A stretch of 64,000 nt of DNA, from assembly GCA_016217735.1 (NCBI GenBank), contig JACRGQ010000052.1, positions 1,838 to 65,837 of the forward strand. The letters are read 5' to 3'. The notes below the pieces were generated by a model. The model was not told the origin of the DNA. It was given only the letters and a program-made list of their open reading frames with translations, and made no database searches. The position numbers were made by a program, and so were the translations under genes. The DNA comes from Nitrospinota bacterium. Lineage in GTDB: Bacteria; Nitrospinota_A; UBA7883; JACRGQ01. This document shows, piece after piece, positions 15,682 to 38,103 of this stretch (position 1 is its first letter; the number at the start of each line of letters is the position of its first letter).

Positions 15682-16779
15682 TCAGTCCTTAAAACGGCTC
15701 AGTATGTTGATAAAATCCTGTTCGATGGCCTGGTAGGCTTCCACCACGGCGGGGTCGAAGTGCGTACCGATCCCTTGCATGATGATCCGGTGTGTCTCCG
15801 CGTGCGGTATGGGGGGTTTGTAGATGCGTTTGGAGATGAGGGCGTCGTACACGTCGGCCAACGCCATGATACGCGCCGCGAGAGGTATCTCTTCCCCTTT
15901 GAGATTGGCGGGGTAGCCGTTCCCATCCCATTTTTCGTGGTGGCAATAGGCGATTTCCTTCGCCATATGGAGAAACGAGCTGTTGACCGTAAGGCGTTTC
16001 TCCGATTCTTCAAGCGTCCAGCCGCCGATGACGGAGTGCTGTTTCATAACCTCAAACTCCTCGGCGGTGAGCCGTCCCGGCTTGAGCAAAATGGCATCGG
16101 GGATTCCCACCTTGCCGATATCGTGCAGCGGCGAGGCCCGCTGAATTGTCATGATGAACGCGTTATCCACCATGTCCCGGTATGAGCCGTTCTTCCGCAA
16201 TTGCACCGCGAGGGCCCGCGTGTATTCACGTATCCGCTCCAAGTGTCCGCCGGTCTCGGGGTCACGGTGTTCGGCCAGCTTGGCGAATCCGAACATCGCC
16301 AGGTCGCGGGTTTGTTCGATTTCGACGGTTCGTTCCACCACCTTGATCTCCAGAGATTTCTGAAGGGCGATATTTTCGTCGAAGGCATGTTTGAGCCGGA
16401 GCATCGAGCTTGAGCGGGCCTTCAGTTCCAGCTCGTTCACCGGTTTGTTCAGGTAATCGTTGGCTCCGGCGGCAAGCCCGGCGATGAGCTGTTCGTCGGT
16501 TTTCCGGTCGGCGGTGAGCAAAATGACCGGCACCCGCTGATTCACTATTTCGCGCACTTTGCGGGTGAGGGTGATGCCGTCCATTTCCGGCATCCGTATG
16601 TCGGTGACGATGAGATCGATGTCCTCTTTGTGTTTCTCGACGAGCCGGAGCGCTTCCAGGCCGCTGGCGGCCCGCAGGGTTTTCGCCCCTTCCATGCCGT
16701 AAATCATCTCCAGCAGTTCAAGATTGGACTCGGTGTCATCCACCAGCAAAACCAGGGCATTATTAAGTTGGCTGCTCAT
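15682..16779 (-). CDS. Response regulator with receiver + HD-GYP c-di-GMP phosphodiesterase domain
   Basis: REC N-terminus (LVLLVDD...VTDIRMPEMDG). HD-GYP signature HHEKWDGNGYP and HD motif (LHDIGKVGIP). Start at the internal Met 16779. Confidence 0.8.
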   Translation of the reverse strand: MSSQLNNALVLLVDDTESNLELLEMIYGMEGAKTLRAASGLEALRLVEKHKEDIDLIVTDIRMPEMDGITLTRKVREIVNQRVPVILLTADRKTDEQLIAGLAAGANDYLNKPVNELELKARSSSMLRLKHAFDENIALQKSLEIKVVERTVEIEQTRDLAMFGFAKLAEHRDPETGGHLERIREYTRALAVQLRKNGSYRDMVDNAFIMTIQRASPLHDIGKVGIPDAILLKPGRLTAEEFEVMKQHSVIGGWTLEESEKRLTVNSSFLHMAKEIAYCHHEKWDGNGYPANLKGEEIPLAARIMALADVYDALISKRIYKPPIPHAETHRIIMQGIGTHFDPAVVEAYQAIEQDFINILSRFKD

Positions 16780-16845
16780 GATAAATAATCCTGCGGGATT
16801 CCTCTTATGTCTTATCCGCAAAGTATATTATCATTTGGGGATAGC

Positions 16846-18240
16846 ATGGAAAACATATTAGTAGTGGACGATAACCAGGACAATCTGGACCTCATCAGCC
16901 TGATGCTGGAGCGCAACGGCTTCGGCCATGTCACCGCGCTCTCGGGCATGGAGGCGTTGGTGAAGATGGAAAAAGAGCCCTTCCGGCTGGTTATCAGCGA
17001 TCTGATGATGCCGCAGATGAACGGCATCCAACTCCTGGAAAAGGTGAAAGAATCCTGGCCTGAAACCGAGGTGATCATCGTCACCAGCGTCGGCATCGTG
17101 AAGCCCGCGGTGGAGGCGATGAAGAAGGGGGCCTATAGCTATATCCAGAGGCCGTTTGACGATGATGACCTGGTGTTAGAGGTGAAAAAAGTCCTCGACT
17201 ACGTGAATATGCGTAAAGAGAACACCAGTCTGCGCGAAGAGCTGGATCAGGTGCGCCATGGCAACCTGATGATCGGCAATACGCCGCTGATCCGGGCCAT
17301 TCAGGAGCTTATCGGCAGCGTGGCCAACACCAACGCCACGGTGCTGATCATGGGGGAAAGCGGCACCGGCAAGGAACTGGTGGCCAACGCCCTCCACAAC
17401 GCCAGCGGCCGGAAAAGAGGCCCGTTCGTCAAGGTTAACTGCGCCGCGCTGGCCGAATCGTTGCTGGAAAGCGAGTTGTTCGGCCACGAAAAGGGGGCCT
17501 TCACGGGGGCGATTGCCCAAAAGAAGGGGCGTTTTGAGATGGCGGACGGCGGCACCCTGTTTCTTGACGAAATAGGGGATATTTCTCCCGCCATCCAGGT
17601 GAAACTGCTGCGGGTCTTGCAGGAGCGCGAGTTTGACCGCGTGGGAGGTGCCAAGCCGGTGAAGACCGACGTGCGCATCGTCAGCGCCACGAATAAAAAT
17701 CTGGCCGAAGAGGTTAAGCGGGGAAGATTCCGGGAAGACCTTTTCTACCGCCTCAACGTGATTTCCGTCAATATGCCCGCGTTGCGCGAGCGCAAGGACG
17801 ACATCGCTGAGTTGGCCCGGTATTTCTTGGAAAAGTACAAGGCTGATGTGAACAAGAACATCGCGGGCATCACGGATAAGGCGATGCGGGCGCTTGTCAA
17901 CTACGACTGGCCCGGCAACATCCGCGAACTGCAAAATGTGATCGAGCGGGCGGTGGTGCTGGCGAACAGGCCGATGCTGGACCTGGCCGACCTGCCCGAC
18001 AACATCAGCAAAGGCCCGCAGCGCATTTCCATCGCCGCGGGCGAGGCGTTGCCGACGCTGAAAGAAGCCAAGCACCTCTTCGAGAAGCAGTATCTGGAGA
18101 AGGCGTTGCTGATGCACAAAGGGAACATATCGCGCACCGCCGAGAAGATAGAACTCGCCCGTAAAAACCTGCAAGACAAGATCAAGACCTACGAAATCGA
18201 CATTGACCGGCTGCTTGAGGGAAAGGCGGAGGAGGGGTAG
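16846..18240 (+). CDS. Sigma-54-dependent transcriptional response regulator (NtrC family: REC-AAA+-HTH)
   Basis: REC (ILVVDDN...ISDLMMPQMNG), then Walker A GESGTGKE, the GAFTGA motif and a C-terminal Fis-type HTH. ATG 16846 is preferred over 16807. Confidence 0.85.
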   Translation: MENILVVDDNQDNLDLISLMLERNGFGHVTALSGMEALVKMEKEPFRLVISDLMMPQMNGIQLLEKVKESWPETEVIIVTSVGIVKPAVEAMKKGAYSYIQRPFDDDDLVLEVKKVLDYVNMRKENTSLREELDQVRHGNLMIGNTPLIRAIQELIGSVANTNATVLIMGESGTGKELVANALHNASGRKRGPFVKVNCAALAESLLESELFGHEKGAFTGAIAQKKGRFEMADGGTLFLDEIGDISPAIQVKLLRVLQEREFDRVGGAKPVKTDVRIVSATNKNLAEEVKRGRFREDLFYRLNVISVNMPALRERKDDIAELARYFLEKYKADVNKNIAGITDKAMRALVNYDWPGNIRELQNVIERAVVLANRPMLDLADLPDNISKGPQRISIAAGEALPTLKEAKHLFEKQYLEKALLMHKGNISRTAEKIELARKNLQDKIKTYEIDIDRLLEGKAEEG

Positions 18241-21850: not shown

Positions 21851-22391
21851 ATTCCCGTTTTCCGTGGAAGGTTTAGCGCGACGTTAAAACTGGTTGATTA
21901 TAGCCCGAATAAAAGGATCTCTTCAATCGGCGAACACCGCGCTTCAGACGGGAAAGGCCGCAATGGCGGCACAGACCCGGTTCACGTCGTCGTCGTTTAG
22001 GCCGGTGTGCAATGGAAGCGACAGCCACTTCCCCACCCGGCGGAACCATCGCCTGCACCGCAAGGTGTACCGGCGCCGTGCCGCTGTTCATGGTGGCGAC
22101 ATTGGCGGGAGGCACGCCCAAAAAGGCGGCGGCCTCTTCGGCGCCGACGATTGAGCGGGAAAGACGGATTTTGCTCTTCATTCGCGACAGTCTATACCGG
22201 CGCATGCCCACGCCGAAACATTCAGGATGATGGGTGAGTACTGAAGTGCATCAGGCCGGTGCAATGTTTTATCTCACCAATGACACGGTATTGCACGGAT
22301 TGCGTTACATGAAATAGCTAAGTCTTTGTTAAGAAGCGGCGTCAGCTTGGCTCATAAATTGCATAAATTTTATGGATGGGGTATGTTCGGG

Positions 22392-22419
22392 TTGATATTT
22401 TTAAGGGCCGGTATATAAT
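22392..22419 (+). promoter_or_regulatory. Sigma70-like promoter (TTGATA-N16-TATAAT) upstream of the first sensor kinase
   Basis: Read directly from the sequence within an AT-rich intergenic region about 70 nt upstream of ATG 22487. Confidence 0.4.
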
Positions 22420-22486
22420 TATTATAAATGAGACTTTAAAGGTAGAATAAGTAATTTTTGGTCGTTGTGTGGGCGGAGGTGAATTC

Positions 22487-24646
22487 ATGAAATTTGCCAC
22501 AAAGCTGACATTGCTGTTTTCAGGACTTTTCCTGATTCTCTGTCTTTTTATAACGGCCATCGTCACCTCTTCAAGCACCGGTATTCTCGAACGCACCATC
22601 CAAACCCAGATGGAACGCCGGACGGCGGAAAAAATGGACAGGATCGACAAATATCTTTTTGAGCGGAACCTGGATACCAAGATGATGTCGACCGATTCCG
22701 TCTTAAAATCGAAAAATCCTTCTCCGGATCTCATTGCGGCCCGGTTAAAGGAACTTTCAAAAAACAGCGGCAGTTACATTTCGCTCTCTCTTTACGATAT
22801 GTCCAGAAAAAGGATTGTCGACACGTTGGGTCTGAATGTGGGAAAAATCCATTCGCTGTCTGAATACTGGCCCGACATCGAATCAGGCAAAGATGCCGCT
22901 TTCGACATGTATTATTCCGATTCTCTCCAACTTCCCTTATTCCACTTTGCGAAGGTCGTAAAAAATGAAGCTGGCGCGCGCGAGGGAGTTCTGGTGGCAA
23001 CGGTATCCACCGAATGGCTGGATGAAATCGTGAAGATCACGGCGATGCCGGAGATAAAAGTGGAGATAGTGAACAGAAACGGGCTGGTGATCTATTCCAG
23101 CTACGATCCGAACAGCATCCTGAAGGAACGCTCAATTTACTGGGAATATATAAAGGCCCGGATTGAGCGGGGAACCATGAGTAAAGGTTCCCGCATACGG
23201 ATTTCCGGCATGGAAGAGGAAATCGTGATCTACGGCCAGGGAAAAGGGTACAAAGATGACACGGGGCACGGATGGACCCTTATAGCCCATGTGCCCAAAG
23301 AAGTGGTTTTCGCGCCAGCCATCGAATTGCGGAACCGCCTGATAATCATCATGTCCATAATCGGCGGCTTCAGCCTGCTGGCGGTGCTGCTCTTTGCCCG
23401 CACCGTAGCAAGTCCCCTTATCAAGCTGAGCGCCGCCGCCGAGGAAATTGGCAGGGGTAACTTGGACGTGAAAGTGGCGGTTGATTCCAACGATGAGGTG
23501 GCAGTGCTGGCAAAGAATCTTAACGCGATGGCGAAAAATCTTTCCGCCTCCCGCACGGCGCTGGAAAAAGCCAAGGAAGAGGCGGAAGAGGCGACAAGGC
23601 TGAAGGATAAATTTGTCACGCTCGTGTCGCATGACCTGCAAACGCCGCTTGTCGGCATGCTGGGAATGATGCATCTTCTTCAGGAACAGCCGGAAATACG
23701 GCCTGAAAGCCGGCATTTTATTGTTCAGGCTGTTCAAGGCAATAAGCGGATGTTGCACATGATAGACCAACTGCTTGACATCAATCGCATCCGGTCGGGA
23801 AAGTTGCAGTTGAAATTGCGCTATTGCAGCGGTACCAATATTGTCCGGGATGCTGTGGCAACCGTTGAAGGCATGGCGGCGGAGAAGGGGATCGCCATAC
23901 AGAATATGGTGCCGGACAAGACGATGGTGATCGCCGATCCCGTTTTTTTGCAGCAGGTTTTTTGCAACCTGCTGACCAATGCGGTCAAATTCAGCGGGCC
24001 GGGGAAAGCCGTGACCATCAAATATTCCCCCGGTAAAAGCATGGTTTTTAAAGTTGAAGACAGCGGCGTTGGCATCCCTCCCGATTCCATAAAGAAGATA
24101 TTCAGCTATCACGAAAAGACATCGACACATGGAACGCGGGGAGAGGCCGGCAATGGCTTTGGCCTTCCCCTTTCCGCCGACATCATGGAGGCGCTCAATG
24201 GCAAGTTGAAAGCGGAATCCCGGCCGGAAGGCGGCGCCTCTTTTTCCGTCATTTTGCCAAATCCCGTGCCAAAGATACTTATTATGGAAAGCAGCGCCGG
24301 TTCATGCGATGCGTTGAAGGGTTTGCTGGAGGAACGGGGATTCACGGTGACGGCCAGCCCCCACGCCCTTAAAATCCTGGAAATGCTGAAAGGGGAACGG
24401 TTTGACTTTCTGCTGGTGCAACTCTCCGGCACAAAGGAGACCGGGGCCGAGCTTTTTCGGTTGGTCGCCCGTGATAAGACGTTGGAAGGGATGCCGGTGT
24501 TGGCGATAGATGATGGCAAATGCAATGATGATTCAAAATTAATCAAGGGCTGTGAAACTATGGCTCGTGGCGCCACGGAGACCGCGGCGGTTATCGAGAG
24601 AATATGCTCCGTGCTTATGGGCGAGGGTTCGACACGGAAGGGGTAA
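22487..24646 (+). CDS. Hybrid sensor histidine kinase HK1: TM-periplasmic Cache-like domain-TM-HAMP-HisKA-HATPase-degenerate receiver
   Basis: Two TM helices flank an approx 270-aa periplasmic domain. HAMP, H-box VSHDLQTPL, N/G boxes and a C-terminal REC-like domain lacking the acidic pocket and phospho-Asp (IMESSAG, FLLVQLSG). The GC content is well below the flanking DNA. Confidence 0.8.
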   Translation: MKFATKLTLLFSGLFLILCLFITAIVTSSSTGILERTIQTQMERRTAEKMDRIDKYLFERNLDTKMMSTDSVLKSKNPSPDLIAARLKELSKNSGSYISLSLYDMSRKRIVDTLGLNVGKIHSLSEYWPDIESGKDAAFDMYYSDSLQLPLFHFAKVVKNEAGAREGVLVATVSTEWLDEIVKITAMPEIKVEIVNRNGLVIYSSYDPNSILKERSIYWEYIKARIERGTMSKGSRIRISGMEEEIVIYGQGKGYKDDTGHGWTLIAHVPKEVVFAPAIELRNRLIIIMSIIGGFSLLAVLLFARTVASPLIKLSAAAEEIGRGNLDVKVAVDSNDEVAVLAKNLNAMAKNLSASRTALEKAKEEAEEATRLKDKFVTLVSHDLQTPLVGMLGMMHLLQEQPEIRPESRHFIVQAVQGNKRMLHMIDQLLDINRIRSGKLQLKLRYCSGTNIVRDAVATVEGMAAEKGIAIQNMVPDKTMVIADPVFLQQVFCNLLTNAVKFSGPGKAVTIKYSPGKSMVFKVEDSGVGIPPDSIKKIFSYHEKTSTHGTRGEAGNGFGLPLSADIMEALNGKLKAESRPEGGASFSVILPNPVPKILIMESSAGSCDALKGLLEERGFTVTASPHALKILEMLKGERFDFLLVQLSGTKETGAELFRLVARDKTLEGMPVLAIDDGKCNDDSKLIKGCETMARGATETAAVIERICSVLMGEGSTRKG

Positions 24647-24720
24647 ACACCATGGAATATGCATCCCTTGCGGTTCTTGCCGCGGACGATTTTGCCGCAC
24701 ACTCGGAGTGAAGGGCGAAT
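23560..24720 (+). repeat. Duplicated transmitter module + junction, copy A (pairs with 25750-26890)
   Basis: Direct repeat of about 1.1 kb at roughly 80-90% nt identity, spanning HisKA-HATPase-pseudoREC and the short downstream junction. Confidence 0.7.
24652..24711 (+). pseudogene. Vestigial 5' fragment (19 codons) homologous to the start of the REC-GHKL gene at 29050
   Basis: AACACCATGGAATATGCATCCCTTGCGGTTCTTGCCGCGGACGAT aligns at about 38 of 45 nt with AAGCACCATGGAACATGCAGCCCTTACGGTTCTTGTCGTGGACGAC at 29041-29090. It encodes MEYASLAVLAADD versus MEHAALTVLVVDD. Confidence 0.6.
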
Positions 24721-26830
24721 GAAGATACAACCGGCATCGGCAAAAATCAAAACAAGGATAACATTCCTCGTTATAACCCTGCTGGTGCTTTCTTTGGCGG
24801 CCATCGGCGTCAGCAACTATGTTCTCTACCGCATCGCGCTGAACCAGGCGGGCGAGATGCTTGGGTATACGACAAAAAGCAACGCGCTTTTTTTTGAGTA
24901 TTCCTTCCGTCATCTGGAAGAAGAAGCCAAGCATTCCGGCGTCCCTTATAGTGTTGATCACGCCCTCGCGCTTTACCGCGAACGCTTGAAAGCCGGCGTC
25001 GTGTTCGGCGAGACGGGGGAGAGCGTCATTGCGCGGCGGGAGGGAGATTCAATCCGCTTCTTTGTGCATAACCGGCTCAAGAATTCCGGCGCTCCCGTTG
25101 TTATTCCGTTCGATTCGAGCGGCACGGCAAAGCCGATGAAACTGGCGTTGGCCGGAAAATCGGGGACGGCAATAACCACCGATTACCGCAACATCACGGT
25201 GCTGGCGGCATACGAGCCGCTTCCCGCGATGAACCTCGCGATCGTAACCAAGATGGACCTTGCCGAGATACGGGAACCCTTTTTAAAAGGGGCCGCGCAA
25301 TTATTCTTTGTAATTTTTGTCATTATCATTGGCGGCGCATTCGTCTACCTCAAAGTCATCACGCCGTTGATACCGCTCCTTATGGAGAGTGAAGAACGGC
25401 TGATGACGCTTGTTAACGGCATCGATGAATCGCTGCTTTTTATCGACCCCGCCGGAAAGGCTCTCATAGTCAATGAAACCGCCGCCAATCGAATGGGCCA
25501 ATCCCCCTCCGAACTGATCGGGCATGATGTTTTCAGTTTTTTTCCACCGGAGATCGCGGCCTCAAGGCGGAGGAAATTAGGGGAGGCGCTGGAAACCGGC
25601 AAGGCGGTGCATTTCGATGATGAGCGGAATGGGCGTCATTATCATAACTCGTTTTTTCCGGTGATGGACGATACGGGACGAAACATCGTTTCGATCGTTA
25701 TCCATGCCCGCGACGTCACCGAGCAGATTAATGCGAAAAATGAAATCCTGGCGGCGAAGGAACAGGCGGAAAAGGCGACCCGGCTGAAGGATAAATTTGT
25801 CATGCTCGTGTCGCATGACCTGAAAACACCGCTTGTCGGCATGCTGGGAATGATGCAGCTTCTTCAAAAACGAACGGGAAACCCGGAGGACAACAGGCAT
25901 TGCATCGATCTGGCGGTTCAATCCAACCAGCGGATGATACGGATGATAGACCAACTGCTTGACATCAACCGCATCCGGTCGGGGAAGCTGCATCTGAAAT
26001 GCCGCTATTGCGATGGCTCCGGCATTGTCCGTGAGGCCGTGGCGATTGTTGGGGACATGGCGGCCCAGAAAGGAATTACCATGCAAAACATGGTGCCGGA
26101 CAGGACTATGGTGATTGCCGATCCCATTTTTCTACAGCAGGTTTTTTGCAATCTGCTGACCAACGCGGTCAAATTCAGCGGGCCGGGGAAAGCCGTGACC
26201 ATTAAGTTTTCCCCGGGTGAAAAGATGGTTTTTGCCGTTGAAGACGACGGCGTTGGCATCGCTCCCGATCTCATGAAGAGCATATTCAGCTATCACGATA
26301 AGACATCGACCCGCGGAACGCATGGAGAAGCCGGAACGGGTTTTGGCCTTCCCCTTTCCGCCGACATCATGGAGGCGCTCAACGGCAAGTTGAAAGCCGA
26401 ATCCCGGCCGGAAGGCGGCACCTCTTTTTTGGTTATTTTGCCAAACCCCGCGCCAAAGCTCCTTATCATGGAAAGCAGCGCCGGTTCATGCGATGCGTTG
26501 AAGGGTTTGCTGGAGGAGCGGGGATTTACGGTGACGGCCAGCCCCCACGCCCTTAAAATTCTGGAAATGTTGGAAGAGGAGAGGTTCGATTTCCTGTTGG
26601 TGCAGCTCTCCGGCATAAAGGAGACCGGTACCGAGCTTCTTCGTTTGGTCGCCCGCGATCAATCGCTGAGGGGGATGTCGCTGCTGGCGATAGGGGATAG
26701 CGTATGTTACGGAAAAAATGGGGCTGATAGCGATATTAACGATATAATGAATTGCGGCCCGGAAACCGCGGCGGTTATCGAGCGAATATACTCCGTGCTA
26801 ATGGGCGAGGATTCGACATGGAAGGGATGA
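24719..26830 (+). CDS. Hybrid sensor histidine kinase HK2: TM-periplasmic domain-TM-PAS-HisKA-HATPase-degenerate receiver (tandem paralogue of HK1)
   Basis: Distinct N-terminal sensor (shorter periplasmic domain plus a cytoplasmic PAS). The transmitter and pseudo-receiver are about 80% identical in amino acids to HK1 and highly similar at the nucleotide level. ATG 24719 follows GGAGTGAAGGG. Confidence 0.8.
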   Translation: MKIQPASAKIKTRITFLVITLLVLSLAAIGVSNYVLYRIALNQAGEMLGYTTKSNALFFEYSFRHLEEEAKHSGVPYSVDHALALYRERLKAGVVFGETGESVIARREGDSIRFFVHNRLKNSGAPVVIPFDSSGTAKPMKLALAGKSGTAITTDYRNITVLAAYEPLPAMNLAIVTKMDLAEIREPFLKGAAQLFFVIFVIIIGGAFVYLKVITPLIPLLMESEERLMTLVNGIDESLLFIDPAGKALIVNETAANRMGQSPSELIGHDVFSFFPPEIAASRRRKLGEALETGKAVHFDDERNGRHYHNSFFPVMDDTGRNIVSIVIHARDVTEQINAKNEILAAKEQAEKATRLKDKFVMLVSHDLKTPLVGMLGMMQLLQKRTGNPEDNRHCIDLAVQSNQRMIRMIDQLLDINRIRSGKLHLKCRYCDGSGIVREAVAIVGDMAAQKGITMQNMVPDRTMVIADPIFLQQVFCNLLTNAVKFSGPGKAVTIKFSPGEKMVFAVEDDGVGIAPDLMKSIFSYHDKTSTRGTHGEAGTGFGLPLSADIMEALNGKLKAESRPEGGTSFLVILPNPAPKLLIMESSAGSCDALKGLLEERGFTVTASPHALKILEMLEEERFDFLLVQLSGIKETGTELLRLVARDQSLRGMSLLAIGDSVCYGKNGADSDINDIMNCGPETAAVIERIYSVLMGEDSTWKG

Positions 26831-26890
26831 ACAACATGGAACACGTCCCGTGGCCAAATTTCCGCATACTCAAAGGAGTTCGATAATTTA
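25750..26890 (+). repeat. Duplicated transmitter module + junction, copy B
   Basis: See copy A. For example GACCTG(C/A)AAAC(G/A)CCGCTTGTCGGCATGCTGGGAATGATGCA is shared by both copies. Confidence 0.7.
26836..26886 (+). pseudogene. Second, shorter vestigial fragment of the REC-GHKL gene 5' end (MEHVPW...)
   Basis: AACAACATGGAACAC after the HK2 stop matches AGCACCATGGAACAT at the HK3/REC-GHKL junction, then diverges. Confidence 0.45.
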
Positions 26891-29044
26891 ATGGCATCCA
26901 CTGGCAAGCGAAAAGCCGCCGGTAAAAACAGCGTGCGCGCCGCTCCCCGTGTATCCCAAAAAGCCGCTCCATCCAAACCGGCCAAAAAACCGGCGGCGTC
27001 CCAAAAACGGTTGAAAGACAAAGACGGGAATATTCCTCCCGCATTGGACACAACTGGCGCGATATACGCCATCGGCGGCGTGGGCGCCGAAATTACCGGC
27101 ATTAAAAAGACGGAAGAACTCCTGCGGACGCACCAGGCCGAACTGGAAATGCAGAGCGAGGATCTGCGCCAAACGCGGGAGGATCTGGAAGTTTCCCGCG
27201 CCAAGTATTACGATCTCTATAACCTTGCGCCGGTCGGCTATTTCACCATCAGCGGGCGGGGTTTGATCGCTGAAGCGAACTTCACGGCCGCCTCTTTGCT
27301 TGGCATGGAAAAAAACCTCCTGATCAGGCAACCGTTCACGCGATTTATCGCCGCCGAGCATCAGGATAGATACTACTTGTCCCACAAAGAACTCCATGAA
27401 ACAGGCAAATCCCAGTCGTGCGAGTTGAGGATTGCGCGCCAGAACGGCGTTCCATTCTGGGCGCGTTTGGAAGCGGCGGCCGCCGTGGATGCTGAAAGCG
27501 GAGCGCCCGTGTGCCATGTCGCGATGATCGACATAACCGAACGGGTGTACGCCGAAGTGCGGATGCGGCTGCTGCAAAGCGCCATGGATCAGGCGGATGA
27601 AACGGTTATTATCACCGACCCCGATGGCGCCATCGAATACGCCAATGCCGCAGCCGAAAAAAAGTCCGGTTACCCCCTAAACGCCCTGCTGGGAAAACCC
27701 CCCCGGATATTCAAAAGCGGTATTCACGATGCGGCCTTCTATGAACGTCTGTGGCGCACCATCAAATCCGGCCACATCTGGAGGGGGAACATCATCAACC
27801 GGCGGGCCGACGGCTCCCATTACGAGGAAGAAGTCACCATCAGCCCGGTGCTGGGGGACGGTGGCGTGATTACCCATTTCATCGCCATCCGCCATGACAT
27901 CACCGAGCAAAAGATGCTGCGTCAGCAGCTCATCCACGCCGAAAAACTCTCCTCCATCGGCACCTTCGTGGCCGGTGTGGCGCACGAGTTGAACAACCCG
28001 CTTACCGCCGTTATCGGTTTTTCCAACGACCTCCGGCAGCGCACCGACCTGCCCGAAGATTTGCGGCACACCCTTGGCGTTATCGCCGATCAGTCGAAGC
28101 GGGCGGTGGGGGTGGTGAAAAACCTGCTCTCCTATTCGCGCCCCCACAAGGTGGAGCGGCGCACGCTGGATATCAACAAACTGCTGGAAAACACCGTCGG
28201 CATCCACCGCTACCGGCTGTCGGCCGACAACATCCCCGTGGAAACGGCGTTCGCTTCCGATCCTTTGCCGGTTTACGCGGACGCCGGACAGGTTCAGCAA
28301 GTGGTGGTGAACATCTTGCTCAACGCCCAGGCCGCCATCAAATCGGCCGGCGCTGACGGCGTTATCCGCATCGCCACCCGGCGGGAGAGCAAGTGGATGG
28401 AAGATATGGCGGTCATCACCATCAGCAACAGCGGCCCTCCGATCCCCATTAAAGATATTGACCGGATATTCGTCCCCTATTTCACCACCAAGGGGGCGGG
28501 GGAGGGAACCGGATTGGGGCTTTACGTCGCTTATAATATCGTGAAAGATCATCAAGGGGAACTGCGGGCCGAAAACCTGCCGGGGGGCGGAGTGGCGTTC
28601 CACATCACCTTTCCCGCCAGCGCGGAAAAACGTGCCGCCACCGCGCCCGTTTCCCAAAACGGCAAAATCACCCCCGGCATTAAAGTGCTGGTGGTGGACG
28701 ACGAAGCGCCGGTGCGGGATTGGCTCACCGGCATGTTGCTGCGGCATAGAGTATTCGCCGTGGGGGCTGGGAGCGTCAGGGAAGCCATTGAGTATTTGCA
28801 AAATGGCAGTTTCGACGCCATTGTTTCGGACTACAAAATGCCGGAGAAAGATGGTATTGATTTATACGGCTGGTTGGCGGAACAGCGGCCGGAGACGGCA
28901 AAGCATTTTATGTTCCTGACCGGGGCGGTGGAACCCCGGCTGATAGAATTTTGTGAAGGCCAAAACCTGGCCGCATTGATAAAACCGGTGGGCGAAGAGG
29001 CGATCATCGCCGCCATCGCGCAAATGCTCGCGAAAGAAGGATAA
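26891..29044 (+). CDS. Cytoplasmic hybrid sensor histidine kinase HK3: basic Lys/Ala/Pro-rich N-tail-2xPAS-HisKA-HATPase-receiver (intact)
   Basis: No TM segment. The N-terminal tail is histone-H1-like (KAAPSKPAKKPAASQKRLK). H-box AHELNNPL. The REC domain carries the acidic pocket VVDDE and D in IVSDYKMPEKDG. Confidence 0.8.
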   Translation: MASTGKRKAAGKNSVRAAPRVSQKAAPSKPAKKPAASQKRLKDKDGNIPPALDTTGAIYAIGGVGAEITGIKKTEELLRTHQAELEMQSEDLRQTREDLEVSRAKYYDLYNLAPVGYFTISGRGLIAEANFTAASLLGMEKNLLIRQPFTRFIAAEHQDRYYLSHKELHETGKSQSCELRIARQNGVPFWARLEAAAAVDAESGAPVCHVAMIDITERVYAEVRMRLLQSAMDQADETVIITDPDGAIEYANAAAEKKSGYPLNALLGKPPRIFKSGIHDAAFYERLWRTIKSGHIWRGNIINRRADGSHYEEEVTISPVLGDGGVITHFIAIRHDITEQKMLRQQLIHAEKLSSIGTFVAGVAHELNNPLTAVIGFSNDLRQRTDLPEDLRHTLGVIADQSKRAVGVVKNLLSYSRPHKVERRTLDINKLLENTVGIHRYRLSADNIPVETAFASDPLPVYADAGQVQQVVVNILLNAQAAIKSAGADGVIRIATRRESKWMEDMAVITISNSGPPIPIKDIDRIFVPYFTTKGAGEGTGLGLYVAYNIVKDHQGELRAENLPGGGVAFHITFPASAEKRAATAPVSQNGKITPGIKVLVVDDEAPVRDWLTGMLLRHRVFAVGAGSVREAIEYLQNGSFDAIVSDYKMPEKDGIDLYGWLAEQRPETAKHFMFLTGAVEPRLIEFCEGQNLAALIKPVGEEAIIAAIAQMLAKEG

Positions 29045-29049: not shown

Positions 29050-29952
29050 ATGGAACATGCAGCCCTTACGGTTCTTGTCGTGGACGACGATGAAGCGGCA
29101 CGCCTTTACCTCGCCATCGTCCTTCGCAAAAACGGCTTCGCCGTGCTGGAAGCGCCGGACGGGGCCGCGGCTATAAAGATCATGCGGGAGCGGGACAAGG
29201 AGATAGCCGCGGTGATCAGCGATATCCGCATGCCCAACATCGACGGGTTGAAGCTGGCCGAGCTGAACTACCAGAACGGCTTCCTGCCGTTTATTGCCTG
29301 TACGATGATCTCGGACGCGGCTGCGGCGCTTACGTTGCTCAAATTCGGCGTGCGCGACTATGTGGTGAAGCCGGTGGAGGAAACCGTGCTGGTGAACACG
29401 GTGCGCGACGCCATCGGGCGGCGCAATCTCCCCCGCCTGTTCGCCGACGACGAGACCCCCCTCCCCGGCAATATGGGGGTCATCACCATCTCGGCCCGCT
29501 TTGCCGCGGTACACCGTGCGCGCGGATGGCTGGAGTTGAAGGCAAGCGGCATCATGTCGCCGGTCGAGCAGCGTCAATTTCTCGCCTTTGCTTCGGAATT
29601 CCTGATGAATGCCTACGAGCACGGCAGCCTGATGCTCACGGAAGAGGAAAAATCGGCGTTGCTGGAAAGCGGGGGATACCACGATGAATTGCGCCGCCGG
29701 GAACTGGAGTGCAAAGCGAAGATAGAAGTGGCGGTCTCCATCGTGGGGAACGAGATCGCCATCAGCGTGACCGATCCCGGGTATGGATTCGATTATAAAC
29801 GGTATCAGGAGATGTCCGAGGCCGAAATGCTCGACCGCCTTATCATGCCGAACGGGCGCGGCATCCAGATGGCGATGCAGTACTTCGACAGCATCACCTT
29901 CAGCAAAGGCGGGGCGGGGGTGCTGCTCACAAAAAAGATGCCGAAAGGTTGA
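29050..29952 (+). CDS. Receiver domain fused to anti-sigma-factor-type GHKL Ser/Thr kinase-like domain (HATPase_c_2, RsbW/SpoIIAB-like)
   Basis: REC (VLVVDDDE...ISDIRMPNIDG). C-terminal N-box NAYEHG, G1 VTDPGYGF and G2 NGRGIQM. Confidence 0.7.
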   Translation: MEHAALTVLVVDDDEAARLYLAIVLRKNGFAVLEAPDGAAAIKIMRERDKEIAAVISDIRMPNIDGLKLAELNYQNGFLPFIACTMISDAAAALTLLKFGVRDYVVKPVEETVLVNTVRDAIGRRNLPRLFADDETPLPGNMGVITISARFAAVHRARGWLELKASGIMSPVEQRQFLAFASEFLMNAYEHGSLMLTEEEKSALLESGGYHDELRRRELECKAKIEVAVSIVGNEIAISVTDPGYGFDYKRYQEMSEAEMLDRLIMPNGRGIQMAMQYFDSITFSKGGAGVLLTKKMPKG

Positions 29953-30069: not shown

Positions 30070-30486
30070 ATGGTTAAAAACAAACTCGTCGTTCATACTC
30101 ACCACATCGGCAGCCATTTCACCAATGGGCTAATGCCGGTTGCCGTGTTGTTGCTTACGCTCTATTTCATTACAGGCATCCAGAGTTTTGAAACCGCTTC
30201 ATTCTACTGCATCGTATTTGCCATGATCGCCAGTCCCCCGGTTTTCTTTAGCGGCCTTATCGACTGGCTCACGCGGTTTCAGGGGCGTTCGGCCAGCATT
30301 TTCAATCATAAGCGGCTGTTTGGCGTCCTTTTTATGCTAGTATCAATTCTGTTGGTGGTCTGGCGCCTCATGAGGCCGGAAGTGGCCGCGCCGGCAAGCG
30401 AATTGCGTTATGTTTACTTTGCGATGGTATGCGCCGATACGGGGTTTGTGGTGTATCTGGGCTATCTGGGAGGCAAGTTCATCTGA
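30070..30486 (+). CDS. Small 4-TM membrane protein (DUF2231-like)
   Basis: 138 aa with four hydrophobic helices. Translationally coupled (ATGA) to the ferritin-like gene. Confidence 0.5.
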   Translation: MVKNKLVVHTHHIGSHFTNGLMPVAVLLLTLYFITGIQSFETASFYCIVFAMIASPPVFFSGLIDWLTRFQGRSASIFNHKRLFGVLFMLVSILLVVWRLMRPEVAAPASELRYVYFAMVCADTGFVVYLGYLGGKFI

Positions 30487-30716
30487 TGTCGAGCGGGGAG
30501 CGCAAAGACCTGGAGCGAAAAATCGAGGCGCTGATTATCGCCATTCCGCGCGAGGCGGAATCGTATGACTTTTATCAGCAACTGGCCGGGGAATATCCCG
30601 ACCAGGCTTCGAAGGAAATGTTCACCTTCCTGGCCGGGCAGGAAAAAAAACATCAGGAGATGCTGGAGCGTATCTTGGCTGATCTTGAAAAAAAACTGGC
30701 AAAGTTGCCACGTTGA
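30486..30716 (+). CDS. Ferritin-like/rubrerythrin half-domain protein (single ExxH)
   Basis: 76 aa, helical, with ESYDFYQQLAGEY and EKKHQEMLE motifs. Too short to be a full diiron protein. Start at the internal ATG 30486. Confidence 0.45.
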   Translation: MSSGERKDLERKIEALIIAIPREAESYDFYQQLAGEYPDQASKEMFTFLAGQEKKHQEMLERILADLEKKLAKLPR

Positions 30717-30742: not shown

Positions 30743-30904
30743 ATGGCTAAATGGGTATGCACTATTTGCGGTTATGTTTATGATCCCGCCGCCGGCGATC
30801 CAGACAGCGGTATCGCTCCCGGCACCTCTTTTGAAGACATTCCCGGAGATTGGGTCTGTCCCGCCTGTGGCGTCGGCAAAAAAGACTTCAGCAAGGTCGG
30901 CTGA
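30743..30904 (+). CDS. Rubredoxin
   Basis: 53 aa, [15 protein letters not shown]...[13 protein letters not shown], with canonical CxxCG...CPxCG iron ligands. RBS GAGGAG upstream. Missed by the ORF track (under 60 aa), whose 30774 ORF is in the wrong frame. Confidence 0.85.
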
Positions 30905-30954
30905 TTCCCGATACGTTCAAGACGATCATACAAACAGGCGAAAGAGGGAAAATC

Positions 30955-31998
30955 ATGGCCGGCCCGGAGCAGGTGGATAAAAAGAAATTATCGATTCTCG
31001 TAGTTGACGATTTTCCCAACATGCGCAGGACGATAAAGAATATGCTCCACTCGCTGGGGTACATGAAGCTCACCGAAGCGGGGGATGGCGACGAGGCAAC
31101 CGAAACCATTGATCGGCTGCATACCACCCCCAGCCGGATACAGTTAGTCATCCTGGACTGGAACATGCCCCGCGTACACGGCATCGACGTGCTCCGTTTC
31201 ATACGAAACAGCCCGCGCCATATGCTCCATGTGTCGGTGTTGATGGTCACGGCCGAAAACTGGGCCGAGGAAATCATCGAGGCGGCGGAGGACAACGTGG
31301 ACGGCTACATCATCAAGCCGTTCGTGGCAAAAACGCTGGAATTGAAGATCAACCAGATTCTGGAGAAGCAATTCAAGCCGACCAAGCTGGAGCGGATATT
31401 CCGCGACGGGATCGTGCTGATGAACAAAAAGGAATTTGGCCAGGCCAAGGCGAAGTTCGAAGAACTTCTGGCCCAGAACGCCAACAGCCCCCGCTCGCTG
31501 CGGGAACTGGCCAAAATCGCCGCGCAGGATGGAGATAACAAAGCGGCCGAGGAGTACCTGAAAAAGGCGCTGGAGATCAACAAGGATTATACCAAGGCGA
31601 TGCAGGACCTCGGCGCGATCTACGCCAAAGAGGGGCGTGACGACGAGGGGATCAAGATGCTGGAAGGGGCGCTGAAACTGAGCCCGCGCAACGCCGACCG
31701 GCTGGCCCTTTTGGGGAACGTTTATTTCAAGAAGCAGCGCTATCAGGAGATTATCGATATGCTGGAAAAGGCCCGCCGCTACGGCCTTTCCATGATCCGC
31801 TACGACATCGATGTGCTGCTGGCCGCGGCCAACCTCGAAATGAAGAACGTGGCGCGCGCCAAGGAGATACTGTTGGGGGCCGTCGGCAACGCCGCGGATA
31901 AGGACAAAGTAAAAGAAGAGATAAAAAAGGCCATCGCCGCCGCCTCCATATCGGAGCCGGACAAGGAAGAACTCACCAAAGATATCGAATCGGCCTGA
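30955..31998 (+). CDS. CheY-like response regulator fused to TPR repeats
   Basis: REC (ILVVDDFP...ILDWNMPRVHG) followed by TPR-like repeats (AKFEELLAQNANSPRSLRELAKIAAQDGD...). Start at MAGPEQ with RBS AGAGGGA. Confidence 0.75.
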   Translation: MAGPEQVDKKKLSILVVDDFPNMRRTIKNMLHSLGYMKLTEAGDGDEATETIDRLHTTPSRIQLVILDWNMPRVHGIDVLRFIRNSPRHMLHVSVLMVTAENWAEEIIEAAEDNVDGYIIKPFVAKTLELKINQILEKQFKPTKLERIFRDGIVLMNKKEFGQAKAKFEELLAQNANSPRSLRELAKIAAQDGDNKAAEEYLKKALEINKDYTKAMQDLGAIYAKEGRDDEGIKMLEGALKLSPRNADRLALLGNVYFKKQRYQEIIDMLEKARRYGLSMIRYDIDVLLAAANLEMKNVARAKEILLGAVGNAADKDKVKEEIKKAIAAASISEPDKEELTKDIESA

Positions 31999-34821: not shown

Positions 34822-34838
34822 TGGGAAAGTTGTGTGCA
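34822..34838 (+). promoter_or_regulatory. Possible sigma-54-type -24/-12 element (TGGGAA-N5-TGTGCA)
   Basis: GG-N10-GC spacing about 30 nt upstream of ATG 34867. Deviates from the TGGCAC-N5-TTGCW consensus. Confidence 0.2.
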
Positions 34839-34866
34839 TTGCGAAGAAAGAGGATATAAGCCTGTA

Positions 34867-37800
34867 ATGAAGAATGTCTCCAATGTATTCAGAAAATATC
34901 CCCTATTTATTTTTTTGTTGCTGATTGCCGGATTGTTATTGCTTCCGCTTTCGGTTATTGCCCGCGCCGCCGCCTTGGATAGGGACAATGTATCAACGTT
35001 AATGGAAAGCCTCAAGGGCGGCACTGCCGGCGGGAGTTCCACGCACCCGGAGTCCTCCCGGCGCACTTCGACTTTGGAGGAAACACGCGGCAGGGAATTG
35101 GTTCAAGCGTTAAAGAAGCGGCGCGCCATGCCGAGCAATATCGAGCTTGAATACCAAAAGCGCCTCCGCCGTGAAAAGAAGAGTTCATTCGCCGCGTTGC
35201 CGCAGAATGAGCTGGTTCTCGTTTTACCCTCGCAGGACGGCCAGGTTTTTGATACCCCATCTCCTTACGATCCCTCTGTTGCCCAATCTGAATCCGCCGA
35301 GCAGCAGCAAAGCCCCGTAGACAAGAAACAGGCCGAGAAGATGATTATGAACTTGCAACAGGGAGAGGGGGCGGCGCCGGGGCAAAAGCCCGCGGTGTCC
35401 GCTCCCCGCGAAGAAAGCGTGACGGTAAAGGGAAAATACGTCCCTTTGGCTGAAATGAAACGCGGCATTCAGAAACAATTGTCCGACCTCCGTGGTGTCG
35501 ATACGCCAGAGGCAAAAGCCTTGAAAGCGAAATTGCAAAAGCAACTGGTCGAGATTGCCGAACTGGAATCGCGGTATAACGATCAAGATTATAAGACCCT
35601 CCAGGAGAATGTGGAAAAAAACGTCAAGGATATCCAAACCCAGAATGCACTTTCCGATAAAGTGCGGCAAGAATCAAAGCCGATAACGGTTTCCGAAAAA
35701 ATAATGCAGTTCGGGTACTCCTTTTTTTATGGAGATTTTTTGCCGCCTGACTTGCTCGACAAGGCCACCGCCAGCGACTATATTGTCGGCCCCGGAGATG
35801 AAGTGGATGTCGGCTTGTACGGCAGTATCAGTCACGCTGGAAAATTTATTGTCGACCGTGATGGAACTATTCCCTTGGTCAATGGCGCTCCACTCAAGGT
35901 CGCCGGTCTCACTTTTGCCCAGATGGACGCAAAAATTCAAAATACCATCAAGGAAAAAATGGTCGGTGTTTCCGCAAAGGTGACGATTTCCCGGTATCGC
36001 GCCATGCAGGTATACATATTAGGAGACGTATCCTTGCCGGGGCCGTGCATGGTAAACGGCATGACCACCGTGTCGGGCGCGTTGCTTGTCTGCGGCGGCG
36101 TGGAACGAAACGGTTCTTTGCGCAAAATAGCCGTCATCCGCAATGGAAAGCAGATGGGCACATTCGACTTGTACAACTTTCTCCTGAAGGGGGACACTTC
36201 CAAGGATCCGCTGCTGAAGCCGGGGGATGCCGTATTCGTCCCGCCCATCCAGAATACCGCCGCTGTCGCGGGCGAAGTAAACCGGCCCGCCATCTATGAG
36301 TTTAGCGATGCCGTGCCGTTGGACGAGCTGATCAGAAACGCGGGGGGGGTGCGTCCCACATCATTCGCCCAAATGGCGCAAATCGAGCGCATAGACGGAC
36401 AGGGCAATTTTGTCACGATTGACGTTGATCTGGCGGGTGCGTCGCGCGCCATGACCATCCGGAACGGCGATATCGTCAAGGTGTTTTCCGTTGTGGAGGA
36501 CAACCTGGACGCCAACGCGGTTTACCTGATTGGCAATATACGCAACGCCGGCAAGCGGGCCTATCAAGGCGGGATGAAGCTGGCGGATGTGCTGAACCGG
36601 CAATCACTCCTGCCGGATACGTATCTTGAGTATGGCATTATCGAGCGCGAAAGCGGACTGGGCAGGGAAACGGAAATGCTTCGCTTTAACCTGGGCAAAA
36701 TGCTTGAAGGGCAAGCGGGCGATAACCTGAACCTTATGGCCAGAGACAGGATTTACATTTTCAACTCCAACGCCTTTATGGAAGCCGAGGCCGTGGGTGT
36801 GGAAGGGCTGGTGCTAAAGCCGGGGAAATACGAAGTAAAGAAGAATATGACCGTGCTGGATCTGTTGCTCACCGCCGGCGGCCTCGACAAGGACGCCGAT
36901 CTTTCGTTCGCCGAGCTTTATCGGGAAGACCCTGTCAGCAAGGTGACCACGCTGCTCCGGCTGAATCTGGAGGATACTGTTTCCTTGCGGGGGGACGCGA
37001 ATCCCGTTTTGCATGCCAATGACCGCTTGGTGGTGCATTCGGTGTGGGAGCGGAACCAAAAGAGCGAAGTAACCATCATAGGGGAAATCATGAAGCCCGC
37101 CTCCTATCCCTTGCCAACGGGAGCGCGCCTGCTTGATCTTATCTATGCCGCGGGCGGCCTTACGGAGAAAGCGTACAAGAAAAGGGTGGAAATAACCCGC
37201 TATGAAGTGCGTGACGGCAAGGAGATGGAATCGAACCACTTTGAAGTGGATCTCGAGGCCGCGCTGCGGGGGGCTTCCAGGGACAACATACTTCTGGAAA
37301 AACGCGATCAGGTCATAATCCGCCCCATCAGCAACTGGGGGGAGGCGGCATATGTGACGCTTCAAGGGGAGGTAATGTTCCCCGGAAAATACATAATCCA
37401 AAAAGGGGAAACCCTTTCGAACGTCATCAAGCGGGCCGGGGGGTTCACCAATGCGGCTTTCGCTTACGGTCTCCGCTTCACCCGCACCTCCATCGCCGCA
37501 ATGCAGAAAAAACAATACGAGGATATGGCGGGCAGGCTGGATATGGAAACCACCCACTTGGCGCTCGCCCCCGCGCAGCTCGGTTCGGAAAAATCGGCGG
37601 ATCAAAAGCAGTTGATGATCGGCGGACTTAGGGCCATGGCCGATAAATTGCGCAAAACCGAGGGGAGCGGGCGGCTCGTTGTAAATGTTCCGTCCGACGT
37701 GACGAAAATGTCGAAGGAAGAAGATTTGGCGCTTGAAGGCGGCGATGCGCTCTATGTCCCGAAAAAACCGGCTGCGGTTCTGGTCATGGGTGCCGTGTAT

Positions 37801-38103
37801 AACCAGAATGCTTTCCAATACCGCAAGGATTTTAGCGTGGAGGCGTATATCAACAGGGCGGGAGGTTATACCGAACAAGCCAACCAGTCGGGGACAAATA
37901 TCATCAAAGCCAATGGTGAAGTGATGCCCTTGCGTGGCGGGTATTTCCAAAAGAGGGCCACGCTCGGTCCTGGCGACGTTATCCTGGTTCCTGAGACCGT
38001 TGTGCAATATTCGGGTCTGCAAATGACCCAGGACATCACGCAGATACTGTATCAGCTCTCGCTTACCGCCGCGGGCCTCAAGTCGATCGGCGTCTTCCAG
38101 TAG
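34867..38103 (+). CDS. Giant polysaccharide export protein (Wza/KpsD family: Poly_export + multiple SLBB domains)
   Basis: 1078 aa. Signal/TM N-terminus, coiled-coil/Gln-rich region, then repeated GDxV...P SLBB-like units (GPGDEVDVGLYG, KPGDAVFVPP, IRNGDIVKVF, LHANDRLVV, LEKRDQVIIRP, LGPGDVILVPE). ATG 34867 has RBS AAGAAAGAGGA. Confidence 0.75.
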   Translation: MKNVSNVFRKYPLFIFLLLIAGLLLLPLSVIARAAALDRDNVSTLMESLKGGTAGGSSTHPESSRRTSTLEETRGRELVQALKKRRAMPSNIELEYQKRLRREKKSSFAALPQNELVLVLPSQDGQVFDTPSPYDPSVAQSESAEQQQSPVDKKQAEKMIMNLQQGEGAAPGQKPAVSAPREESVTVKGKYVPLAEMKRGIQKQLSDLRGVDTPEAKALKAKLQKQLVEIAELESRYNDQDYKTLQENVEKNVKDIQTQNALSDKVRQESKPITVSEKIMQFGYSFFYGDFLPPDLLDKATASDYIVGPGDEVDVGLYGSISHAGKFIVDRDGTIPLVNGAPLKVAGLTFAQMDAKIQNTIKEKMVGVSAKVTISRYRAMQVYILGDVSLPGPCMVNGMTTVSGALLVCGGVERNGSLRKIAVIRNGKQMGTFDLYNFLLKGDTSKDPLLKPGDAVFVPPIQNTAAVAGEVNRPAIYEFSDAVPLDELIRNAGGVRPTSFAQMAQIERIDGQGNFVTIDVDLAGASRAMTIRNGDIVKVFSVVEDNLDANAVYLIGNIRNAGKRAYQGGMKLADVLNRQSLLPDTYLEYGIIERESGLGRETEMLRFNLGKMLEGQAGDNLNLMARDRIYIFNSNAFMEAEAVGVEGLVLKPGKYEVKKNMTVLDLLLTAGGLDKDADLSFAELYREDPVSKVTTLLRLNLEDTVSLRGDANPVLHANDRLVVHSVWERNQKSEVTIIGEIMKPASYPLPTGARLLDLIYAAGGLTEKAYKKRVEITRYEVRDGKEMESNHFEVDLEAALRGASRDNILLEKRDQVIIRPISNWGEAAYVTLQGEVMFPGKYIIQKGETLSNVIKRAGGFTNAAFAYGLRFTRTSIAAMQKKQYEDMAGRLDMETTHLALAPAQLGSEKSADQKQLMIGGLRAMADKLRKTEGSGRLVVNVPSDVTKMSKEEDLALEGGDALYVPKKPAAVLVMGAVYNQNAFQYRKDFSVEAYINRAGGYTEQANQSGTNIIKANGEVMPLRGGYFQKRATLGPGDVILVPETVVQYSGLQMTQDITQILYQLSLTAAGLKSIGVFQ

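Follow-up and report, generated by a model that had tools for sequence, protein, structure and literature searches.

The 64,000-nucleotide window analysed here (contig JACRGQ010000052.1 of the Nitrospinota bacterium assembly GCA_016217735.1) carries four closely spaced forward-strand genes at 22.4-30.0 kb, encoding three histidine kinases (HK1, HK2 and HK3) and a response regulator (RR). Positions given without a locus name refer to this window. HK1 and HK2 were described as tandem paralogs in a preliminary description made from the letters of the sequence, and our analysis agrees, with two adjacent open reading frames on the same strand; HK3 lies outside their shared-module family. HK1 and HK2 combine an apparently intact kinase core with a C-terminal receiver-like domain that has lost its phosphorylation site. 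On the evidence of sequence and gene order, we consider it reasonably probable that the two are paralogs of long standing, native to their lineage, within a small kinase family specific to Nitrospinales, that the pair feeds one RR, and that the receiver-like domain regulates the kinase. The features of the locus are listed in Table 1.

Table 1. Features of the HK1-RR locus, in order of position in the window (aa, amino acids; TM, transmembrane segment)
Feature	Position	Strand	Description
Promoter-like site	22392..22419	+	TTGATA-16-TATAAT, 11/12 consensus matches, 68 nt 5' of HK1 start
HK1	22487..24646	+	719 aa: TM, periplasmic dCache-like domain, TM, HAMP, HisKA, HATPase_c, pseudo-receiver
HK1 sensor module	22487..23569	+	TM, dCache_1-like domain, TM, HAMP (aa 1-362)
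Shared module, copy 1	23570..24657	+	DHp/HisKA, HATPase_c, pseudo-receiver, stop codon and 11 nt
HK1 pseudo-receiver	24272..24643	+	aa 596-719; E601/S602 (DD column), Q645 (D), D675 (T), G695 (K); C-terminal half divergent
RR-start fossil after HK1	24652..24711	+	Shine-Dalgarno sequence, ATG and 19 codons, MEYASLAVLAADDFAAHSE*, compared with RR start MEHAALTVLVVDDDEAARLY
HK2	24719..26830	+	703 aa: TM, ~160-aa periplasmic domain, TM, PAS, HisKA, HATPase_c, pseudo-receiver
Shared module, copy 2	25754..26841	+	Direct repeat of copy 1
HK2 pseudo-receiver	26456..26827	+	aa 600-723 (723-aa numbering); E605/S606 (DD column), Q649 (D), G679 (T), C699 (K)
Short RR-start fossil after HK2	26836..26848	+	Only ATGGAACACGTCC left
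HK3	26891..29044	+	717 aa, cytoplasmic PAS-PAS-HisKA-HATPase_c kinase with true receiver
RR	29050..29952	+	300 aa, receiver fused to RsbW/SpoIIAB-type HATPase_c_2 (Pfam)

HK1 is identical to the database protein P0001, "MAG: HAMP domain-containing protein [Nitrospinae bacterium]" (MAG, metagenome-assembled genome), and its ATG is preceded by a GGAGG Shine-Dalgarno sequence. HK2 matches P0016, the neighbouring entry of P0001 on the same 74-kb contig. The longest HK2 open reading frame begins at an in-frame ATG at 24659 and would give 723 aa. The start codon is likely the ATG at 24719 (MKIQ...), as in P0016 and the orthologs; this ATG is preceded by GGAG..AAGGG.

HK1 and HK2 share a C-terminal transmitter module. 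The identity of the two copies had been put at ~80% over ~360 aa; the shared module stands, and the figure turns out to be that of the DNA, the proteins being 76% identical (272/358 residues, BLASTP, gap-free). At the DNA level, the module is a gap-free direct repeat of 1,088 nt at a constant offset of 2184 nt, with about 80% identity (80-88%), and the repeat reaches 11 nt past both stop codons. Both copies contain HisKA (47.9 bits in HK1 and 54.9 in HK2) and HATPase_c (83.7 and 81.9 bits) domains, all above the Pfam cutoff. The H-box His, the N-box N/N, DxGxG, F and GxGxG motifs of the kinase are invariant in a 25-sequence alignment.

The sensors are a different matter. BLASTP returned nothing significant between the N-terminal halves of HK1 and HK2, in line with the earlier statement that they are unrelated, and Pfam and TM predictions gave the architectures as they had been read, with a Cache-like domain in HK1 and a smaller periplasmic domain plus PAS in HK2. 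The dCache_1 match of HK1 reached 37-39 bits against a Pfam cutoff of 45 (E = 1e-9 to 3e-9, profile positions 3-194 of 240), and HK1 orthologs carry a precomputed PF02743 (dCache_1) match. The break between sensor and module falls in a coiled-coil linker (...EKAKEEAEEAT/RLKDKF..., with the slash at the break), at the start of the DNA repeat and just before the H-box helix. Sensor identity between HK1 and P0010-P0015 is 60%, whereas the transmitters of these proteins are ~35% identical to that of HK1. Four of them (P0010, P0012, P0013 and P0015) combine the HK1-type sensor with a canonical receiver. In P0011, P0014, P0023 and P0024, the same dCache-HAMP sensor is present and the protein stops right after the ATPase domain, with no receiver. 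Retained, lost and degenerate receivers occur side by side in this sensor family.

We examined the receiver-like domain in a module alignment of HK1, HK2, 13 further family members and ten homologous kinases with canonical receivers. All five catalytic residues are replaced relative to the ten true-receiver homologs, which confirms that the acidic pocket and the phospho-acceptor are lost; the motifs quoted for this loss, IMESSAG and FLLVQLSG, occur in both HK1 and HK2. The phospho-acceptor column holds Asp in 10/10 true receivers, Gln in 13 of the 15 family members and Glu in the other two (orthologs), and BLASTP against P0010 gave the same Asp-to-Gln equivalence. The acidic pair is Asp, Asp in canonical receivers and Glu plus Ser or Asn in the family. 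The Ser/Thr column, Ser or Thr in canonical receivers, is Gly in HK2 and Asp in HK1 (Ala in an alternative BLAST alignment). Lys is found in its column in nine of ten canonical receivers, compared with Cys in 12 of 15 family members and Gly in HK1. A second MAFFT run deleted the beta5-Lys segment; the first alignment, without gaps, contains more identities, and the Lys is missing in both. Response_reg (PF00072) scores are below the cutoff of 30.2 bits, at 21.5 bits for HK1 and 18.2 bits for HK2, over profile positions 1-76 and 2-68 of 111, respectively. By the definitions of PMC12632262, the C-terminal domain of HK1 and HK2 belongs to the aspartate-less subset of pseudo-receivers; the Asp is missing from ~2.0% of PF00072 domains (PMC12632262).

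Structure prediction indicates that the domain has the (beta-alpha)5 receiver fold. The AlphaFold2 model of the HK2 domain alone reached a mean pLDDT of 79.7 and a pTM of 0.77, and the whole module reached a mean pLDDT of 78.9. The models place beta1-alpha1-beta2-alpha2-beta3-alpha3-beta4 and the final helix alpha5 with confidence, and a low-confidence hairpin or loop takes the place of helix alpha4. When the domain model was compared with the PDB by Foldseek, the top matches were all receivers, with TM scores of 0.68-0.72 (PmrA, the FrzS pseudo-receiver, CheY3 and RR468). A fold search with the whole 378-aa module returned kinase cores only (HK853 and others), with little on the receiver-like part.

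A domain that has lost all five catalytic residues, scores under the Pfam threshold and is poorly modelled at alpha4-beta5 might be a decaying relic, and the proteins would then be ordinary non-hybrid kinases with dead weight. The HK1-sensor relatives that end right after the ATPase domain (P0011, P0014, P0023 and P0024) fit this possibility, as do the C-terminal halves of the HK1-type pseudo-receivers, which are diverging fast in three lineages (the window, P0006 and P0008; nonsynonymous divergence, dN, 0.32-0.59). However, the length of the domain is constant, with no frameshifts or stops, in 16 sequences of three architectures, and several motifs and Cys positions are family-specific and invariant. 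Between HK1 and HK2, dN in the first 70 codons (beta1-alpha3) was 0.05 against a synonymous divergence (dS) of 0.45, a dN/dS of about 0.1. In the last 55 codons of typical family members, dN was 0.14-0.25 against a dS of 0.4-1.1. The pseudo-receiver is maintained by purifying selection, with the exception of the C-terminal half in the HK1 type, and we consider a mere relic distinctly unlikely. As for the divergent tail of HK1 (24500-24570), a frameshift was considered as its cause and rejected, as both copies are in the same register with no indel.

The family that carries this module is very narrow. An exhaustive HMMER search with the HK2 pseudo-receiver against 1.84 billion cluster representatives (50%-identity clusters) returned three proteins below E = 1e-10, at 1e-46 to 1e-57; the next matches were generic receivers at E = 1e-6. 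The three clusters correspond to three architectures on one module, namely the HK1 type (dCache-HAMP), the HK2 type (periplasmic domain plus PAS) and a third type (T3; P0020-P0022) with a large N-terminal sensor and several PAS domains. In a scan of one genome per GTDB species, the module was present in one representative only, a Nitrospinales groundwater MAG, and the other four loci were generic kinases. A word-indexed protein search with the 129-aa pseudo-receiver alone found nothing, which reflects a limitation of the index, since full-length and HMMER searches do find the family. In this family, one transmitter module (HisKA/DHp, intact HATPase_c and an aspartate-less pseudo-receiver) was joined to at least three different sensor modules via recombination in the linker.

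Gene order around the family kinases varies among the relatives. The arrangement is HK1-HK2-RR in L001-L003 and HK2-HK1-RR in L004. HK1 stands alone on the P0005 contig, followed by a rubredoxin gene and a TPR regulator gene, and in L005 it is followed by the contig end. L012 has HK2 alone, and the P0018 contig has HK2-RR behind a large PAS protein. Whenever a family kinase is followed by the RR, 5 nt separate the kinase stop codon from the RR ATG, and the Shine-Dalgarno sequence of the RR is inside the last kinase codons (...AAAGGATAAACACCATGGAACATGC...). This 5-nt spacer (a 6-nt start-to-stop offset) was observed at four loci: L001, L004, the P0018 contig and the window.

Remnants of this kinase-RR junction remain where no RR gene is present today. 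The HK1 stop codon is followed by ACACC, an ATG and 19 codons with ~80% DNA identity to the RR start, as aligned with the RR starts of the window, L001 and L004. This fossil ends 7 nt before the HK2 ATG at 24719, and its open reading frame could couple HK2 translation to HK1. The alternative HK2 ATG at 24659 sits inside the fossil, in a different reading frame. The long remnant also occurs in L001, after the HK1 of that locus, in a more eroded form. The 13-mer ATGGAACACGTCC that remains after the HK2 stop codon is found in identical form after the HK1 ortholog in L005. The presence of the long fossil in both the window and L001 indicates that the HK1-HK2 junction predates their split. The junction fossils thus show an ancestral unit of one kinase and the RR, with HK2 placed between HK1 and RR before the window/L001 split.

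HK3 is found between HK2 and RR in this genome only and is missing from that position in all relatives; it was inserted there later. The final codons of the old kinase end, together with its ribosome-binding junction, seem to have been preserved in HK3. The N-terminus of HK3 is a ~45-aa Lys/Ala/Pro-rich stretch, which precedes its two PAS domains and true receiver, and its GC content of 58.1% is typical of the window, unlike that of HK1 and HK2.

We analysed the phylogeny of the transmitter module as segment trees, and these are incongruent. In the DHp tree, HK1 pairs with P0002 (89% bootstrap). In the tail tree, HK1 pairs with P0006 (89%), and P0002 groups with P0003 inside the HK2-type tails (93%). 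The L005 ortholog has a breakpoint at nt 215: of the informative sites, 33/38 before it agree with HK1 and 93/146 after it agree with HK2 (maximum chi-square 30.9, reached in 0/500 permutations; p < 0.002). At the end of HK2, the final 60 nt agree with HK1 and not with the HK2 orthologs (15/17 and 17/18 sites; p = 0.016 and 0.004). The dS between HK1 and HK2 is patchy along the module, with some 30-codon windows at 0.13-0.27 and others at 0.5-0.67. The paralog dS of 0.44 is also lower than the species dS (0.47-0.62) between the window and genomes in which both genes are already present.

Taken together, the incongruent trees, the breakpoints, the patchy dS and the low paralog dS indicate that the duplication is old and that the paralogs later underwent partial gene conversion or recombination with one another, a history that explains their similarity better than a recent duplication. 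Independent duplications in each genome were rejected as the sole cause of the low paralog dS, given that the fossil at the HK1-HK2 junction is shared with L001. No genes of the locus evolve faster than the kinases, which have a dN/dS of 0.22-0.38 compared with 0.09-0.20 for their neighbours. HK1 and HK2 are 75-81% identical in DNA to the L001 and L004 orthologs (22482-26843), and the flanking genes are 85-88% identical.

The preliminary description had also reported a GC content of 47-52% against a background in the low 60s and had suggested a foreign origin or recent import followed by local duplication. The dip is real but smaller, at 52.6% for 22487-26830 compared with 58.1% for the window. 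It amounts to ~2 standard deviations, about half the earlier estimate, and is the lowest in the window at that scale, with 2.3% of same-sized windows as low. GC at third codon positions (GC3) is 62-65% in HK1 and HK2 and 70-78% in the neighbouring genes. This composition, a rearrangement breakpoint at the locus and an adjoining DegT gene fragment would be compatible with the recent import of a foreign, AT-richer kinase gene, followed by its local duplication and an exchange of sensors.

The relatives speak against such a history. Orthologs lie at the same locus in L001-L005 and L012, beside the same epimerase, UDP-glucose dehydrogenase and glycosyltransferase genes; three related Nitrospinales assemblies have HK1 and/or HK2 at the epimerase/DegT-flanked locus, and two of them have both genes. 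The dip is repeated in L001, L004 and L005, where the kinases have 50-54% GC against 55-64% in the flanks (GC3 59-69% against 60-81%). These species are separated from the window by a dS of 0.3-0.6 (flanking genes and RR). A GC signature shared at such distances, in a family seen nowhere else, is not indicative of recent import into this genome. No donor is visible, as the pseudo-receiver module was not found outside the lineage in the HMMER clusters or the GTDB scan. The RR-start fossil common to the window and L001 and the module dS of 0.44 between the paralogs likewise argue for age. Although the composition is atypical, the locus is not a recently acquired island, as the genes are present in relatives at the same place. 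Recent import is already largely refuted, and we consider it extremely improbable.

The module is rich in family-specific Cys residues. Six Cys positions are kept in 10-15 of the 15 family members and are never Cys in the ten true-receiver relatives: C448 and C451 (a CxxC at the start of the ATPase domain), C497 (in the N box), C611 and C683 (in the pseudo-receiver) and C699 (in the Lys column of the pseudo-receiver). The HK2 pseudo-receiver has the family-typical Cys at 611, 683 and 699. Genes related to oxidative stress recur nearby. A DUF2231 membrane protein (138 aa; 30070-30486) and a mini-rubrerythrin/ferritin-like protein (95 aa; 30429-30716) are encoded 3' of the operon. The same DUF2231/mini-rubrerythrin pair, with an iron superoxide dismutase (Fe-SOD) and a rubrerythrin, is found just 5' of the third paralog type in two assemblies (L006 6954-7597), and the gene after the HK1 ortholog on the P0005 contig encodes a rubredoxin.

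The six conserved Cys and the oxidative-stress neighbours make a redox or metal-sensing role possible. The module might be a cytoplasmic redox or metal sensor, with the pocket Lys turned into Cys and the CxxC in place, in which a disulfide or a metal or Fe-S centre gates the kinase and the N-terminal sensors provide a second input. There are precedents, as redox-regulated pseudo-receivers and Cys-bearing aspartate-less receivers are known, including RitR, Hp1021 and the quinone binding of CikA (PMC12632262, PMC4395418). However, HK1 of the window is without two of the six Cys (position 448 is not Cys, and the Lys-column Cys is displaced), and the Glu-variant orthologs P0006 and P0008 keep only some of them. 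The gene-neighbourhood evidence comes from one lineage and may be plain synteny. We therefore see a redox or metal sensor as a tentative idea, rather unlikely as the explanation of the module. A more specific form of it, which we think unlikely, is a new type of Cys-based sensor, in which the rebuilt pocket (Lys to Cys, two flanking Cys and Gln at the Asp site) and the CxxC at the DHp-CA junction bind a metal or Fe-S centre or form disulfides. If this were true, each paralog would join its own extracytoplasmic input and a common redox input to an RsbW-like output linked to the rubrerythrin, SOD and DUF2231 genes.

HK1 and HK2 look like active kinases with no capacity for internal phosphorelay. 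Their sole receiver-like domain is without the Asp, so they are not hybrid histidine kinases in the sense of having a phosphorylatable receiver in the same polypeptide, and a Pfam search for an HPt domain in HK1 and HK2 found none. CikA of Synechococcus elongatus (GAF-HisKA-HATPase) is built in a similar way: it has a single C-terminal receiver-like domain without a phospho-acceptor right after the kinase core, and no true receiver or HPt domain elsewhere in the protein. The CikA pseudo-receiver inhibits autophosphorylation and binds quinone and KaiB (PMC12632262). HK1 and HK2 differ from it in their membrane-bound dCache/PAS sensors, the absence of a clock context and a Cys-rich pocket that is specific to their family. 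In ShkA of Caulobacter crescentus, a central pseudo-receiver (REC1) is also fused after DHp-CA, and it docks on the HisKA domain until cyclic di-GMP releases it (PMC12632262; bioRxiv 10.1101/675454). Full-length ShkA (6qrj) was among the fold matches of the whole module, with 298 aligned columns. ShkA is cytosolic and has a true receiver after the pseudo-receiver, whereas HK1 and HK2 end with the pseudo-receiver and hence have no internal phosphorelay. Other aspartate-less receivers, such as FrzS, RitR and the second domain of PleD, also have the receiver fold with the phospho-Asp replaced, and FrzS is both the best single-sequence PDB match of the pseudo-receiver (E = 0.0012) and its second-ranked fold match. 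These characterised domains occur mostly in response regulators and not at kinase C-termini, and HK1 and HK2 differ from them in the replacement of all five catalytic residues and an apparently remodelled helix alpha4.

By analogy with CikA and ShkA, the pseudo-receiver of HK1 and HK2 most plausibly regulates the kinase core in cis. It would act as an intramolecular regulator and not as a phosphorelay step, docking on DHp/CA, binding a ligand or partner, or both. HK1 and HK2 would autophosphorylate on the conserved His. Because neither has a phosphorylatable receiver or an HPt domain, the phosphoryl group would pass straight to the shared downstream RR. Two inputs, a periplasmic dCache ligand and whatever is sensed by the second periplasmic domain and the cytoplasmic PAS, would thereby merge into one RR output. 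The receiver of RR is canonical, with DD, D58, T and K all present, and its HATPase_c_2 half has N-box and G-box motifs, so the output is probably an RsbW-like serine kinase or anti-sigma switch. RR is 85-86% identical to its orthologs in L001, in L004 and on the P0018 contig. It matched the 304-aa "SenB" structure in the PDB (9qih) over its full length (residues 8-297, E = 1.3e-9), with E = 0.004 for the ATPase-like half alone. A literature search for 9qih "SenB" found no paper, and the matches to "SenB" concerned an unrelated selenium enzyme.

Many-to-one kinase arrays are known, as with KinA-E, which signal to Spo0F, and LuxN, LuxQ and CqsS, which signal to LuxU. HK1 and HK2 resemble these arrays in having different inputs and one acceptor, and in duplication with sensor replacement at the linker before DHp. 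In HK1 and HK2, the convergence is inferred, the transmitters are unusually similar (76%) and are kept so by patchy recombination, and partner-gene fossils remain at the junctions.

Several observations weigh against this proposal. The alpha4-beta5 region of the pseudo-receiver is modelled at low confidence, and its C-terminal half in HK1 is near-neutral (dN 0.45 against dS 0.58 relative to HK2), so that at least this copy may be in partial decay. HK1 and HK2 also diverge in two elements that help to set partner specificity, namely the DHp loop and the beginning of helix 2. Not every family kinase is paired with the RR, as the HK1 ortholog on the P0005 contig is without an adjacent RR and a T3 member is followed by a sigma-54 regulator. 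In the window itself, HK3 and not HK2 is directly coupled to RR. A phmmer search against all PDB sequences (E up to 10) found neither CikA nor ShkA; given this lack of specific sequence kinship, the two precedents show possible roles, not membership. Finally, we inferred every functional step from sequence and gene order.

The two kinases might also act on each other, as heterodimers or through control of the RetS-GacS type, with the pseudo-receiver as the interaction surface. DHp helix 1 is almost identical in HK1 and HK2, both genes are apparently in one operon, and GacS and RetS structures were among the whole-module fold matches. Kinase-kinase regulation is established for RetS/GacS. On the other hand, some relatives hold only one of the two genes at the locus, and paralogous kinases usually evolve away from heterodimerisation. 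We consider mutual regulation very improbable, and a pair of kinases that converge on RR, each with a pseudo-receiver acting in cis, remains our preferred reading.

The promoter-like site upstream of HK1 is a candidate promoter for the HK1-HK2-HK3-RR gene string, based on its consensus match, and the DNA upstream of HK1 is kept in L004. A search of the forward strand between HK1 and the RR gene found no terminator-like sites. None of the proteins matched an NCBIfam family above cutoff. Between the epimerase gene and HK1, a 112-codon reverse-strand open reading frame (21873-22211) is apparently a remnant of a DegT/DnrJ/EryC1 aminotransferase gene, with a weak Pfam match (E = 0.21, profile positions 31-72). 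The relatives have at this position either a full DegT gene of 378-407 aa (L004, L012 and the P0005 contig) or a 170-aa piece (L002).

The breakpoint lies right after the RR gene. In L001 and L004, a SecG-SBP-KdsB-PyrG-KdsA block is directly 3' of RR. In the window, this block runs inverted from 64000 down to 58733, with 87-88% identity, and ~29 kb (29958-58733) separate it from RR. The P0005 contig has the alternative neighbours seen in the window (TPR regulator and accA). Signalling genes crowd 15682-18240 and 30850-31998 and encode a REC-HD-GYP-type regulator, a sigma-54 activator with a receiver and a REC-TPR protein. Genes for polysaccharide synthesis and export are interleaved with them, including a glycosyltransferase, UDP-glucose dehydrogenase, epimerase and a 1089-aa Wza-like SLBB exporter (34834-38103).

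Pseudo-receivers and tandem kinases with swapped sensors are both known. The points of note here are the very narrow family, the junction fossils, the recombination between paralogs and the cysteine pattern; otherwise, the locus represents ordinary two-component expansion and domain shuffling in an uncultured groundwater lineage. With partner-gene fossils left at its duplication junctions, the locus gives an unusually clear picture of the way tandem kinases arise and of how recombination then keeps them similar. How bacterial pseudo-receivers are switched on and off was said to "remain a mystery" (PMC12632262), and the HK1/HK2 family bears on this acknowledged open question. As a small and delimited family with one pseudo-receiver, three sensors, Gln and Glu variants, lineage-specific cysteines and an identifiable partner RR, it would provide a convenient natural experiment on kinase-attached pseudo-receivers.

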